Part shown: positions 54,113-64,000 of the stretch, piece after piece
Layout of the letters: every line of letters begins with the position of its first letter
Numbering within the stretch: position 1 is the first letter of the stretch
Source: Eledone cirrhosa
Lineage: Eukaryota
Reading direction: 5' to 3'
Assembly: GCA_964016885.1 (NCBI GenBank)
Contig: OZ024747.1
Location: 53,816,001-53,880,000 of the forward strand
Length of the DNA stretch: 64,000 bases
The notes under the pieces: model-generated
What the model was told of the DNA's origin: nothing
The model's input: only the letters and a program-made list of their open reading frames with translations
Databases searched by the model: none
Translations under genes and position numbers: made by a program

Positions 54113-56010
54113 ATAATGAAAAAAAAAAATGTTGAAATACAATGCCTCAACATTTAAAACAATATATATATATTGATATACATATAACTAGAGGTTTTGT
54201 TATCAATATATTAAAATGCTGCCATACACGCATGCATATATATATGTGTGCACCAAATACATGCTGTAAATTACTGCACAAGCTCCAGTAATTCTTGCAT
54301 TTAATTTAGCTTCCACCACTTGTGAAACTCACACTGAGGAGGTACTACAATTGTTTCAGTGTAACTCTACTCACATGCATACATATATAGGCGCAAAATT
54401 TATATCTATGTATCTATCTATCTATCTATCTATCAATGCTGATAATGGTGATGGCATACGTACGCACACACACACACACACACACACACCTAACCCATGC
54501 TAGCATGGAAGATGGATGTTAAACGATGATGATGATGATGATGATGATGACGATGATGATATATATATATATATATATATATATATATATATATATATAT
54601 ATATATACATACATATATTTATATACATATATATATATAATGTATCATCATCATCATCATCATCATCATTTAGCGTCTATCTTCCACGCTAGCATGGGTT
54701 TACATATATATATACATGTATATAATGCATATATATATATGATTATGATGATATATATATATTTAATGTATATACATATACATATATATATATATATATA
54801 TAAATATATATATATATATATATATATATAATGTATATATATATATATATATATAATGTATATATATATATAATATATATATATATATATATATATATAT
54901 ATATATATATATATATATCAATGTGTATATATATATATATATCAATGAAACCTATTCCCATTGTTAGGAATGTAACATTTGAAAATTTTTCCAACTTACT
55001 GAACCTCTGATTTTTTTCTCACTAACAGAATGAAATGTCAAAAAAGAAGTGGCCCAAGGCTCGATTTGAAACTAAAACCATAAAATCTTTAGCCAACACT
55101 GAACTTTATATCCTACACAAGCCTCCTACAAACACAACACACACACACACACACATATATATATATATATGTGTGTGTATGTATTAATAGATGCATAAAT
55201 GCATTCATGTATACATGCATATTGAGATATCGATGTTTTGTTGTGTGAAGTATTTTTTCTTCAGGTTGAAATGTAAAGTTGAAGTAGTAAGCAAGAGGCA
55301 TGGGGTACATCAGAAAGATGGTATAGGGGAAGGGTTGATAGATGGTATGGGGGAACGGTTGAAAGATGGTATCGGGGAAGGGCTGATATATAAGGTTTCT
55401 TTGTTTTTGTTTGTTTTTAAAACTGGAAGGTCAAGAAATGAAGTAATAATTAGAAACTTAGAAACATTGTAAAAAGTTGATATTAAAAGTCAAAGGGAAG
55501 ATTTTTCAAATAAACATATATATATGTGTGTGTGAGCATGTATATATATGTGGTGTTTCTGTGTGTCTGTATATCTCTATCTCTATCCCTGTATATATAT
55601 ATATATATATATATATATATATATATATATATATATATATATATATAAGTGTTTGTATATTAAATAACATCAGTATAAAGTTAGAAGGAAGACTTGTTTA
55701 CAACTAAACATATGCATACTCTCATGTGTGAAACTAATAATAATAACATTTGTACTGCCTCATCGTTTTTTTTTGTTTTTTATTCTCTGTATACTTAAAA
55801 AAAAATATATATATATATATATATACATACATATATATACATACATATATATATATATATATATATATATATATATATATATATATATATATATATATAT
55901 ATATATATATATATATATATAATGGAAAAATTTGAACAGGGACAAAACAGAGAGGCAGTACAACGAATGTTTATTAATTTCACGCTCTGGAGAGTGGGGT
56001 GTTGGTGGGG

Positions 56011-56044
56011 GACGACGTTTCGGGCATAAGCCCTTCCTTAGGTG
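56011..56044 (-). ncRNA. Degenerate minimal hammerhead motif
   Basis: CTAAGGA-agggcttatgccc-GAAA-cgtc; G5>A, stem I essentially lost. Confidence 0.5.
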
Positions 56045-56239
56045 AGAAGTGTGTGGGAACAGAGTTCAAAGGGTGTGTAGGGGAGTGGTGGAGAGACATA
56101 TAGCGAAAGGAAACAGTGCGAATGAAAAAATAAAAATAAAGATAAAAATAAAAATAAAGCATGATCAAAATACAAGGAATGAGATAAATTTAAAAATAAA
56201 GGCATGATCAAATATATATATATATATATATTTATGAAA

Positions 56240-56329
56240 ATAACAGATTAAAGTTTAAGCAAAGAATCGCTGCTTTCACCCTTAACGCGGTGAAAGTAGC
56301 GATTCTTTGCTTAAACTTTAATCTGTTAT
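56240..56329. repeat. Hairpin with 41-bp arms and an 8-nt loop; GAAA next to the apex
   Basis: ataacagattaaag...tttcacc / ggtgaaa...ctttaatctgttat, 1 mismatch, next to (TA)n. Confidence 0.9.
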
Positions 56330-57395
56330 ATTAATAAATATTTGCTCTACGGTTCTTATATATTTGATATATATTTATCCTTATCGAGCCCTCTTTGGAT
56401 TTTAGTCTTCAATTTTATTATTACTATATATATATATATATATATATATATATATATATATATATATATATATATATATGTGTGTGTGTGTGTGTGTGTG
56501 TGTGTATATATTAACAAATGGAAACTATATTTATAAAACCATATTTATTTCATTATACATATTTCAAGGGCCACCAAAGCTATTGAAACAGCTAAAGCTC
56601 ACCAATCAAATCCTGACACTTTATAATATATACATATATATATATAAATGTATGCATGTATGTAATGTCCTCTGATTATATAAAGGTATACCATTGGGGT
56701 TCTTTATACCAACACACACACACACACACTCACACACACATTGACACACATTCACTCAGACACATATATTTTTATATCTTTGCTTTTGAGTGTGTGTGAG
56801 TGAATGTGTGTAACCATGCATGAATCTAAATACTTATATGTTTACTTCAAGAAAATATAGACAGATATATACATCAAATATCAAACCAAGTCAGGTATTA
56901 AAGCAATGAAAAAAGCTGGAAATTATTTCTTGTTAAAAAATGTTGTTATTTCAAACTGAGAATATGTGTATATCCAAATTCAGCTAGCAGGGAAAACTGA
57001 TCTTAGAAGATGATGATAATATGTAAAATATTCATATATATATCATCATCATCATCATCATTGATGATTATGTATATACAAATATATGTATCAGGATAAA
57101 ACAGGTTTAAAAGTACATAGACCATTACTCAACAGAGTATTCGATACTTAGGGTAGTATAGCATGGCTATATTATAAAGAGACGGGACCCAACAGCTAAC
57201 CTTTTATCATTTCAATAGCTAGTTCCAGACTGGTCTGAAACAGCAAAAGCTCACCAATCAAGTCCTGACACTTTATAATATATACATATATAAATATATA
57301 TATATATATATATATATATATATATATATATATATATATATATATATATATATACAATATTAAACAAATGGAAACTATATTTATAAAACCATATT

Positions 57396-57461
57396 TATTT
57401 CATTATACATATTTCAGGGATACCATATTAAAAATATGGCATGCCTTCGTCAGATAAAATA
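57396..57461 (-). ncRNA. Type I hammerhead ribozyme
   Basis: Reverse complement of 57648-57713. Confidence 0.82.
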
Positions 57462-57647
57462 CAATATATAAACAGTTTTATAAATAATTTTGACGTACCA
57501 TAAATATAAGCGACCATTAAGATAGGAGGCTGGCTTGGTAGTACCAAGCCAGCCTCCTATCTTAATGGTACCAAGCCAGCCTCCTATCTTAATGGTCGCT
57601 TATATTTATGGTACGTCAAAATTATTTATAAAACTGTTTATATATTG

Positions 57648-57713
57648 TATTTTATCTGACGAAGGCATGCCATATTTTTAATATGGTATCCCTGAAATAT
57701 GTATAATGAAATA
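57648..57713 (+). ncRNA. Type I hammerhead ribozyme
   Basis: tattttat-CTGACGA-aggcatgccatatt ttt aatatggtatccct-GAAA-tatgta-TA-atgaaata. Confidence 0.82.
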
Positions 57714-57969
57714 AATATGGTTTTATAAATATAGTTTCCATTTGTTTAATATCGTATATCTACTCCAAAAACTTGTCGAGTGCTTTATATCGGTTATAAA
57801 ATATTTACTTGTTGTAACCCAACAATTTTAAATAAAACTTTTGCATATATATATATATATATATATATATATATATATATATATATAAGTTATTCCAGGT
57901 TCAATCGGAGGTAACCACAGTAAGTAAGGTACTCAATACATAACAGAGTATAAATGTTTAATATAGAAA

Positions 57970-58020
57970 AGCTTCTACAGGACTAGAACTGTTTCATTCG
58001 TGCAAAATCATCAGGAAGCT
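57970..58020 (-). ncRNA. Type I hammerhead ribozyme in the 3' pLTR
   Basis: agcttc-CTGATGA-ttttgcacgaat-GAAA-cag ttctagtc ctg-TA-gaagct. Confidence 0.82.
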
Positions 58021-62217: not shown

Positions 62218-62291
62218 GCTGTGATATATATTTCAGTGACGACACTGGCCACACTGTTCTGTGTGCGAGTGTCGTGTCATCATCAGACAGC
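62218..62291 (-). ncRNA. Type I hammerhead ribozyme
   Basis: gctgt-CTGATGA-tgacacgacact..cacac..gtgtg..agtgtcgtcact-GAAA-tatata-TC-acagc. Confidence 0.85.
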
Positions 62292-62426
62292 TTGTTACAT
62301 AAGAAGGTTATGTTTCCGAGGCAATCCAAATTGGATCAACATGGGAACGGATGAATTGCGTGTTTTTGGGTTTTTCATCCGATCCAATTTGGATTGCCTC
62401 GGAAACATAACCTTCTTATGTAACAA

Positions 62427-62500
62427 GCTGTCTGATGATGGCACGACACTCGCACACAGAACAGTGTGGCCAGTGTCCTCACTGAAATATATATCACAGC
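62427..62500 (+). ncRNA. Type I hammerhead ribozyme
   Basis: gctgt-CTGATGA-[45-nt stem II]-GAAA-tatata-TC-acagc; AUC cleavage triplet. Confidence 0.85.
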
Positions 62501-63584
62501 ATTATTATTAAAGGACTTGAACATCTGAAACTACTTCGCTTTTCCTTATTCTATATATATATATATATATATATATATATATAAAATGAAGAATTAGAAA
62601 TAGAAGTTAGGAATATCCATCATCAGTTGTCTACTAGGCATTATAGGTATTTCTTCGCATTACAGACAATGTATCTCCACCTAGGGCGATACAATAACTA
62701 AAATAAATTATTGGGATAAAAAGAGTTGGGTGGAGAAAGAGAAAGAGGGGCGAATTTTGATGAGGCGAACAAAGACACATCTTAACCGTACAGATGTGAG
62801 AGAGAAGAAAGACCACGTACAATGGAGGAAGTGAGAGAGAGGGTGAGTAGCAGAGAGTGAGTGAGTGAATGTGCGAGGAAGAGGCTAGCTGAAAGAGGGC
62901 GACTAGCAGAGAGGGTGACTGAAAGTAAGAGAGAGAAGGTGGAGAGAGAGAAAAAGGATAGCTGAAAGGGAAGAGAAAAAAGACAGGTCACAGCGAAGGC
63001 GAAAGCATATATGAATAAAAAATGGCCAGCTGTGTTGTTGCAATTAAGTATAAAAAAATGAAGAATATATATATTTATATAATTGAATATAAAAGAGACA
63101 TATATGTGTTCAAATCATAAGGGACCAGAATCGTCTGGGTGTCTGACAGTTGTCGCAATTTCGGTTTGTATCTCTTTTCTTAATTTATTATTTTAAATTG
63201 AGTCTGGCAAACCCTAATGTCCATAGTTAGTATTTTTTTCACCCTGGCGAATCTGGTCCCTTATGATTTGAACACATATATGTATATATCTCTGTTTATC
63301 TCTCTTTTATATTCAATTATAATACACGGTCTGGAAAAGTTTCTTTCCTTGAGCTATTTAATTGTAAAAGACTATTTTGAGTTTCTAACTCAATATATAC
63401 TTTTGATATATATATATATATATATATATATATATATATATATGCAGAGGTTATTAATTTGTTGGGATTCAACAAGCTTAAACATTTTTTTATAACTGAT
63501 ATAAAGCACTATCCAGGTAGCTCCAACCGTTAAGGTTGTCTTTTTTTTCCGGGTATGTCAATATTTATTTATAAAACAAATCTG

Positions 63585-63650
63585 TATTTTATCTGATGAA
63601 AGCGCACCATAATTTGCCTTGGTTGCCCTTGAAATATATATAATAAAATA
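63585..63650 (+). ncRNA. Type I hammerhead ribozyme, same pLTR family as 57648
   Basis: tattttat-CTGATGA-aagcgcacca..tggttgccctt-GAAA-tatata-TA-ataaaata. Confidence 0.82.
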
Positions 63651-63731
63651 AATATGGTTTTATAAATATAGTTTCCATTTATTAATATATTGAATATATA
63701 TATATATATATATATATGGGGGGTGGGGATC

Positions 63732-63770
63732 CTGATGATTTCCTTCAAATGAAACAGTTCTAGTCCTATA
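63732..63770 (+). ncRNA. Truncated hammerhead of the 57970 family
   Basis: CTGATGA-tttccttcaaat-GAAA-cagttctagtcct then (TA)n. Confidence 0.6.
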
Positions 63771-63814
63771 TATATATATATATAAATAAAATAGATGTTC
63801 TTTTGATCAATTAC

Positions 63815-63867
63815 ATTTTATTATACATGTTTCGGATGTACAACAGTACGTTCTCACCAGACAAAAT
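63815..63867 (-). ncRNA. Degenerate hammerhead
   Basis: attttgt-CTGGTGA-gaacgtac tgtt gtacatcc-GAAA-catgta-TA-ataaaat; A6>G. Confidence 0.55.
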
Positions 63868-64000
63868 ATAATGATACATGACATACCCTGGGATGTTAAA
63901 TGGTTAAGATTTAATCAAGGTAGTGATTAACCTAAGAGAAAATTTAACATTTATACCCTAATAATGAGAAAATGCGAAAACGTAATAAATTCAATAGAGA

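Follow-up and report, generated by a model that had tools for sequence, protein, structure and literature searches.

Head-to-head hammerhead palindromes in a (TA)n-rich region of Eledone cirrhosa are probably 3'-end stubs of Hydra-clade Penelope-like elements

The window analysed here is a stretch of 64,000 nucleotides from Eledone cirrhosa (assembly GCA_964016885.1, contig OZ024747.1, positions 53,816,001 to 53,880,000 of the forward strand), and the region of interest within it (55720-63870) is a series of short repeats with 23 (TA)n arrays between them. Two of these repeats are palindromes with a hammerhead ribozyme motif in each arm. They are probably single insertions of Hydra-clade Penelope-like elements (PLEs) and of a derivative without open reading frame (ORF), each made of two 5'-truncated, hammerhead-bearing 3' ends joined head to head in (TA)n.

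Palindrome A (57347-57762) has two arms of 194 nt (57347-57540 and 57569-57762) with 2 mismatches, palindrome B (62159-62559) two arms of 179 nt (62159-62337 and 62381-62559) with 5 mismatches. Both had been correctly recognised in an earlier, sequence-only reading of the window, which missed that each palindrome carries a unique extension of 70-85 nt on one side only ('tail'; 57760-57845 in A, about 62089-62160 in B). The palindromes had been said to abut (TA)n and to contain no ORF: this is true for one outer end of each, while the other end reaches (TA)n through the tail, and the longest ATG frame has only 38 amino acids in A but 105 in B. A loose hammerhead core pattern matches 8 times in the region, compared with 0.33 ± 0.57 (maximum 2) in 300 dinucleotide shuffles; the remaining 55.7 kb of the window have 8 matches too, all unvetted. 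By manual count, the region contains 10 full-length hammerhead motifs and three halves; the previous count of 11 motifs from at least four families was fair. Six of the full-length motifs look intact (57453-, 57656+, 58014-, 62286-, 63593+ and, with stem II defects, 62432+) and four are damaged (56041-, 59944+, 61391+ and 63732+); the halves are 56580- and each arm of 56228-56345. Position 55720, taken as the start of the hammerhead region, lies merely in a fragment of a family D 3' end. Units not listed before are the head-to-head units of families E (56228) and F (63065) and an A-type unit at 63444. The features are, in order:

55715-55790, plus strand: family D 3'-end fragment without hammerhead core.
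55935-56195, minus strand: family D repeat with degenerate hammerhead (core 56041, G5A; stem II of 4 bp; palindromic ACGT stem III), matched at 9 of 324 compared loci.
56228-56425: family E mini-palindrome made of two half-hammerheads in head-to-head order, with a tail on one side; further copies exist, and their apices differ.
56508-56580, minus strand: truncated arm of the A superfamily with the 3' half of the hammerhead only.
57347-57540, minus strand: tail-less arm of palindrome A, by its motifs a Hydra-PLE pseudo-long terminal repeat (pseudo-LTR), whose type I hammerhead has its core at 57453; the arm begins at the TCACTAC 'wall' described below.
57541-57568: apex of palindrome A, with a 27-nt duplication absent from 15 other top-scoring copies compared.
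57569-57762, plus strand: tailed arm of palindrome A, hammerhead core 57656, predicted cut after 57705.
57760-57845, plus strand: PLE tail of palindrome A, between two 3' ends (likely two reverse-transcription start sites; compare PMC11167929).
57888-58438, minus strand: family C 3' untranslated region (UTR), pseudo-LTR and tail; intact-looking hammerhead 58014 (stem I of 6 bp, stem III of 4 bp, GUA triplet), about 30 nt past TATAAATA.
58938-59900, minus strand: broken pieces of a Hydra-clade ORF, reverse transcriptase (RT) thumb plus GIY-YIG at the C terminus; family C ORFs at other loci are 89% identical to the RT piece.
59910-60071, plus strand: inverted family C arm fused to the ORF fragment; hammerhead 59944 with the 5' strand of stem I deleted.
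60967-61517, plus strand: second family C 3' end, hammerhead 61391 with G12A; 98% identical to 57888-58438.
62089-62160, minus strand: tail of palindrome B.
62159-62337, minus strand: tailed arm of palindrome B, hammerhead core 62286; 3' end of an ORF-less 1.3-kb tandem unit.
62381-62559, plus strand: tail-less arm of palindrome B, core 62432 with two stem II defects.
63065-63400, no strand assigned: family F head-to-head unit plus tail, no hammerhead core recognised.
63444-63700, plus strand: A-superfamily insertion, an inverted tail fragment (63444-63510) fused through CACT with an arm beginning at the wall (63508); core 63593.
63720-63768, plus strand: family C hammerhead (63732) ended by (TA)n ahead of the cleavage site.

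The second family C 3' end (60967-61517) is possibly the head-to-head partner of 57888-58438, separated from it later by insertions.

Judged by the match of their ORF motifs to the published clade definition, families A and C represent the pseudo-LTRs of Hydra-clade PLEs that are autonomous. Elsewhere in the genome the A arm is preceded by an RT, then a GIY-YIG endonuclease (EN), then a UTR of 1.4 kb (L089, L095, L102), or it lies with its tail directly upstream of an ORF start with an IRRIRWR motif (L126, L131), and one A ORF has pseudo-LTR copies on both sides (L185). The C arm lies with its tail upstream of a Hydra ORF that is 89% identical to the ORF fragment 59623-59900 of the window (L301, L317), and in the window downstream of an ORF with the RT (59880-59623) followed by a C-terminal GIY-YIG (59300-58956). 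The order of RT and EN was judged from motifs and from tblastn with the ORF at 2599-4554 of the window. The A ORF has the motifs IRRIRWR, SDKT, CNCRNKSNC, CDLC and CRH, the C ORF RIRWR, SDKT and CDLC. Craig et al. 2021 (PMC8557442) define the Hydra clade by RWK-type (here RWR), DKT, CxCx5C, CxxC and CxH motifs, the last two in place of CCHH, and their supplement has one family from an octopus, Hydra-1_Obim, whose rows we compared by eye for the placement. A Pfam search with four proteins of the window returned no matches.

The likeness to the C-terminal EN+ PLEs of this clade extends to the RT followed by the C-terminal GIY-YIG, to RW(R/K), DKT, the CxCx5C linker and CxxC plus CxH around the E and N residues of the EN, and further to a canonical hammerhead, (TA)n targets (the flanks of A and C loci fit insertion into (TA)n), pseudo-LTRs, an inverted 5'-truncated copy and a one-sided tail. 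The families here are longer than the 'generally <3 kb' given for Hydra PLEs (about 3-3.7 kb, with a 1.4-kb 3'UTR in A), the tails measure 70-85 nt instead of the 30-40 reported for PLEs, and the copy numbers of up to tens of thousands, the large share of insertions that are mini-palindromes and their fixed 5' wall differ from Hydra PLEs as described in that paper. Mobilisation had previously been ascribed to a Naiad-type RT/GIY-YIG. Naiads share the (TA)n bias, inverted copies and tails, but according to the same source they have an N-terminal EN, a CxC motif and no canonical hammerhead, while the ORFs here have a C-terminal EN, start with a SLKNIP/SLKDIP-type region and are accompanied by a hammerhead; the Naiad label is therefore wrong for the partner ORFs. 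The window also holds a near full-length Hydra-type ORF of another family (2599-5083, minus strand, split at about 4550) with RWR, DKT, CxCx5C and, at its C terminus, GIY-YIG; upstream of its start lies a palindrome of about 1 kb with no obvious hammerhead (5300-6300).

For family A we sampled all loci of the first 100 exact marker matches on contig C1. They include 25 close pairs, and all of these are in minus-then-plus order, that is head to head, with spacings of 110-220 nt (17 pairs), 509-872 nt (3) and 2286-3551 nt (5); one further close pair is tail to tail (L102). Exactly one tail is present in 24 of the 25 pairs, and none in the remaining one. The longer arm is the tailed one in seven pairs and the tail-less one in 16, with one tie. 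The 3' ends are of two fixed kinds, one with and one without tail, each finishing at a short TATA tract. Minority variants common to both arms of the same locus number 18, compared with 1.7 expected from between-locus pairs (27 loci). The apices lie at short inverted micro-repeats or filler. Top-scoring copies are biased to the length of the query itself and were excluded from the counts of walls and apices.

The 5' ends of the arms are not spread evenly. In 59 of 100 A arms the end lies at the A in TCACTAC or 3' of it; this A, about 88 nt ahead of the hammerhead core, is what we call the wall. Of the arms, 49 end within 26 nt of it and only two in the 42 nt upstream. Other subfamilies of the A superfamily retain CACTA(T/C)C at this place, and several short arms start at it, as does the window arm 63508. 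In family C, 20 of 22 close pairs are spaced by 38-74 nt, with arms that extend at most to the A 30 nt past TATAAATA. Among 30 tailed C arms inspected by eye, 13 have their end in the stretch from about 3 nt ahead of the predicted start to the core, 11 traverse the TATA box, none ends between the predicted start zone and the TATA box, and six are shorter or irregular. PLE transcription starts in the pseudo-LTR (PMC8557442) and TCACT has been called an initiator (Inr)-like motif in the Adineta pLTR (PMC3846280); the wall is therefore likely the transcription start of the element, and thus the 5' end of its RNA. The short arms would then likely be 'strong-stop' complementary DNAs (cDNAs) primed in the upstream pseudo-LTR of uncleaved RNA. 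Neither the wall nor the strong-stop reading was found in the literature searched, a search that most subscription papers, including the Drosophila virilis Penelope work, lay beyond.

We also considered that arms begin at the ribozyme cut. Most arms contain the whole hammerhead. For the A superfamily this origin is rejected: of 30 loci chosen by a marker on the 3' side of the cut, 28 retain the core upstream of it. For family C it is unsupported, with 24 of 30 arms keeping the core wholly or partly and four, which start within 4 nt upstream of the cut, ambiguous. The predicted RNA start of family C (window 58014, L259-L292) is the first base of hammerhead stem I, and cleavage would thus strip the capped first 45 nt or so.

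Hammerhead numbering, the Inr and TATA consensus sequences and the 30-nt TATA spacing were used as commonly understood. The hammerhead fold of the A superfamily is supported by an invariant core with free N7 and by stem covariation. We aligned 20 sequences, two from the window and 18 of the 22 distinct core-bearing motifs from other loci, leaving out three motifs with internal deletions and one near-duplicate. They have the CUGANGA, GAAA and NUH cores and stems I-III of a type I hammerhead, with a core that is invariant apart from N7; 96% of stem cells are paired, compared with 36-56% in slid controls, and changes on both sides occur in four of 15 stem pairs, a count from related sequences and not of independent events. 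An Rfam scan gave no matches at gathering thresholds and no hammerhead family among 144 matches at E<=10; its microRNA (miRNA) matches were discarded as microsatellite and hairpin noise. Our strict monomer scanner recognises A-type motifs only, and the registers of B, C, D and E were set manually. For single motifs, minimum-energy folding recovers stems I and II of A but not the catalytic fold of B or C, and is for this reason not taken as support. By eye, stem I of family C has compensated changes among subfamilies (AGATTC/GAATCT, AGCTTC/GAAGCT). Family E (for example L108, L208 and L266) has a predicted hammerhead-like fold with stems I and III of 5 bp, a core variant, CAGAAGA (U4A), found throughout the family, and CUU as the predicted cleavage triplet.

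The sequence-only reading had also proposed ambisense transcripts with self-cleaving potential. Read-through RNA of the palindromes is predicted to fold into one long hairpin with 87-88% of its bases paired and with the antisense arm transcribed first; this would bury the ribozyme, and the hammerheads are thus likely silent in palindrome transcripts. Self-cleavage of read-through RNA is doubtful on this model, and the hammerheads appear to be passengers of the pseudo-LTR.

Palindrome B belongs to a different kind of repeat. The family B unit is ORF-less (longest frames about 100-115 codons), 1.31-1.36 kb long and arranged in tandem arrays with one type I hammerhead per unit. One example is a head-to-head array of about 12 kb (L132/L133, G000:C1:130881500-130895500) with four minus-strand units joined to a plus-strand array with six hammerheads, and with a period of 1309-1322 nt. 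Hydra tblastn matches occur at four of 41 B loci, but one is the ORF of a neighbouring element (L195) and three lie outside the B stretch (L186, L189, L204). We found no autonomous partner, which is not proof of absence; the pattern search for one linked to an ORF gave a single chance match. By eye, the B sequence past the tail includes a stretch resembling the A 5'UTR, a likeness that blastn did not detect, and a remnant of an ORF start; its retention suggests a region needed in cis, as in PMC11167929. Family B apparently derives from a PLE and, by its sequence, is a non-autonomous element like a non-LTR retrozyme, whose mobile unit is the 1.3-kb tandem repeat and not the palindrome. The non-LTR retrozymes of Metazoa (Cervera and de la Pena 2020, PMC7229834; Li et al. 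2026, bioRxiv 10.64898/2026.07.22.740005) are likewise repeats without ORF, arranged head to tail, each unit with a single type I hammerhead. Their units are shorter, typically 150-450 bp, and 51-972 bp in the vertebrate survey of 2026. Unlike retrozymes as described there, B copies carry PLE integration marks (tail, head-to-head arrays, (TA)n), and the palindromes themselves are not tandem.

How could such joints arise? The observed pseudo-LTR arms, two 3' ends, new apices, common variants and wall are the basis from which we infer double priming, run-off and the identity of the wall. The RNA would start in the upstream pseudo-LTR and continue with the hammerhead, two priming sites and the ORF. 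The RT-endonuclease would cut (TA)n on both strands and prime reverse transcription at two sites, mostly on uncleaved RNA. In the upstream pseudo-LTR, priming would yield a short cDNA running off the RNA 5' end; downstream, it would yield long, variably truncated copies; and the two cDNA ends would be joined at short inverted repeats or via filler; two short cDNAs joined in this way would make a mini-palindrome, likely a dead end. This agrees with a 'minimal product of the PLE insertion mechanism', one of two alternatives offered before, which the varying apices and the ORF-linked arms support. We see about an even chance that the stubs, tens of thousands in number, are a fossil map of the Penelope cycle, in which the Hydra RT/EN would prime at two sites of the upstream pseudo-LTR that match TATA, one for each target strand, and run off the RNA 5' end, giving an LTR-like strong-stop cDNA, and in which the same machinery would integrate the 1.3-kb retrozyme.

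Two further known systems come close. The Penelope junctions of Adineta vaga (Arkhipova et al. 2013, PMC3846280) share the inverted pLTR, the optional tail on one arm, the junction palindrome and a TATA box with Inr-like TCACT; they were explained by self-priming on an antisense template, whereas here the predicted sense-strand start is where the two arms stop, and the longer arm can be either of them. In vitro work on the Poseidon PLE of Anolis (Frangieh et al. 2024, PMC11167929) showed a tail bounded by two internal RT start sites, AT-rich targets, cutting and extension of both target strands, and uncleaved RNA as the main template, hammerhead cleavage being unneeded; the elements here probably share these traits. 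Poseidon is of a different clade and its start sites lie inside the ORF and are non-homologous to the target, while here the two 3' ends lie some 50 and 135 nt upstream of the ATG, each at a TATA tract, and would be able to pair with (TA)n.

Several observations speak against parts of this reading. Family B has no clear wall, its arms extending from about -40 to >1000 nt at 18 C1 pair loci, and the TATA-like box of family A is imperfect. At four of 30 C loci (L303, L305, L309, L312) an arm starts no more than 4 nt from the predicted cut, possibly as a rare copy of cleaved RNA or by microhomology. The variants common to both arms could stem from gene conversion after insertion. The boundary samples come from the start of one contig, with boundaries past about +100 poorly measured (limit 172, low-complexity DNA). 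Lastly, the B junction lies at one natural hairpin in 18 of the 22 best-scoring copies, a set picked by likeness to the query, and so resembles a fixed apex.

This last point would suit a self-propagating, ambisense, non-autonomous class, in which the whole hairpin is transcribed, cut by the ribozyme and re-inserted as a unit, the other alternative of the sequence-only reading. Hundreds to thousands of palindromes are indeed similar in size, and a few A apices recur (L014/L027, L082/L086). However, the check on apex recurrence that had been suggested shows 22 of 22 close pairs of family C with unique apices, even when the arms are identical; the recurring apices are at natural inverted micro-repeats, and the B hairpin is absent as apex from all 18 C1 pair loci, its loop belonging to the tailed or the tail-less arm alike. 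The head-to-head spacings of family A range from 110 to 3551 nt. Short A arms are mixed with long, ORF-linked ones: a tree with one A arm per locus (34 short, 34 long) needs 22 label changes compared with 22.4 after shuffling, and a single clade of short arms is rejected (p-AU 0.0003, the tree being poorly resolved with 2 of 57 branches starred). Short arms also lack the upstream TATA box, and the ribozyme is hidden in the predicted read-through fold. Neither an apex fixed by descent nor a clade of short copies was found; the palindrome is not the mobile unit and not a new element class, and self-propagation is extremely unlikely.

An origin of the short arms from a separate short RNA of solo pseudo-LTRs, reaching from the start site to the tail and mobilised in trans like a short interspersed nuclear element, with the same head-to-head joining, predicts an identical 5' wall, and solo pseudo-LTRs with TATA box are very numerous. 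Yet the short arms follow every autonomous subfamily and not a few master loci, and non-autonomous family B keeps the post-tail sequence, which suggests a need in cis, if only indirectly (the likeness was seen by eye and not by blastn); we consider this origin improbable. Even less likely is that one cDNA snaps back and primes itself to give the second arm, or that this arm is made on an antisense template (PMC3846280), instead of by a second target-primed event. Junctions at short inverted repeats and hairpins and the private variants common to both arms would fit, but snap-back of the tailed strand requires a longer tailed arm and the tailed arm is the shorter in 16 of 24 pairs; moreover, single arms have either 3' end and the same wall, and both outer ends match fixed sites beside TATA tracts. 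That the palindromes are fold-back artefacts of sequencing or assembly has next to no probability: the arms differ by 2 and 5 mismatches, are asymmetric with their one tail and have the same end bases at dozens of loci, and short-read contigs of run X1, possibly the assembled sample itself, contain at least 15 other head-to-head-type family joints, each within one contig. No short-read contig piece of four runs spans the whole of palindrome A, as expected for a repeat, and this proves nothing.

Exact markers of the families were searched in 3.0 Gb of genome and gave 1,418 matches for A, 45,152 for the A superfamily, 34,742 for C and 1,932 for B, about one match per 37 kb. The region of 8.15 kb has nine matches compared with 0.22 expected from these counts; within the first 18.1 Mb of C1 the densest windows of that size have six and five, and the 10 kb beyond the window have none for the four markers. 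The hotspot described before is thus real and dense for its surroundings, but its members are common elements aimed at one microsatellite type. Repeated targeting of (TA)n, with each insertion leaving (TA)n in place, would produce such a local cluster.

Further repeats were noted in the window. Between the family C pieces lies a 580-nt repeat (60195-60775) that is 92-96% identical to copies at many compared loci. Another repeat is an old, imperfect palindrome (61709-61911, 78%) without hammerhead or (TA)n ends, which matches none of the 324 compared loci and is possibly a miniature inverted-repeat transposable element (MITE). A 54-nt unit is repeated in tandem 97 times over 5.3 kb (45442-50702). 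Hammerhead-like motifs occur at 8951 (minus, with flanks resembling family D), 43385 (plus) and 53635 (plus), and broken reverse transcriptase frames at 10551-12772 (plus) and 42003-42686 (minus), which we take from their motifs to be like long interspersed nuclear elements.

Much of what is described here has been published: head-to-head joins, tails, (TA)n targeting, pLTR hammerheads and PLE-derived retrozymes. Inverted 5'-truncated copies and tails are described in PLEs (PMC8557442), pLTR hammerheads with palindromic stem III in PMC4209133, and PLE-derived tandem retrozymes in PMC7229834 and bioRxiv 10.64898/2026.07.22.740005. The wall is a modest mechanistic lead. It occurs in two unrelated families, A and C, and leads to predictions at base level for the start of the RNA, both priming sites and the product of run-off; the mechanism of tandem and inverted PLE insertions is an open question, named as a next task in PMC8557442. 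Family B is a concrete retrozyme-like repeat with the marks of PLE integration. For annotation, the palindromes belong with PLE 3'-end stubs, not with MITEs, miRNA precursors or a new ribozyme element. If the proposed cycle is true, pseudo-LTRs, tails and head-to-head junctions would be explained from sense RNA without an antisense template, and animal retrozymes would be tied directly to PLE enzymes.

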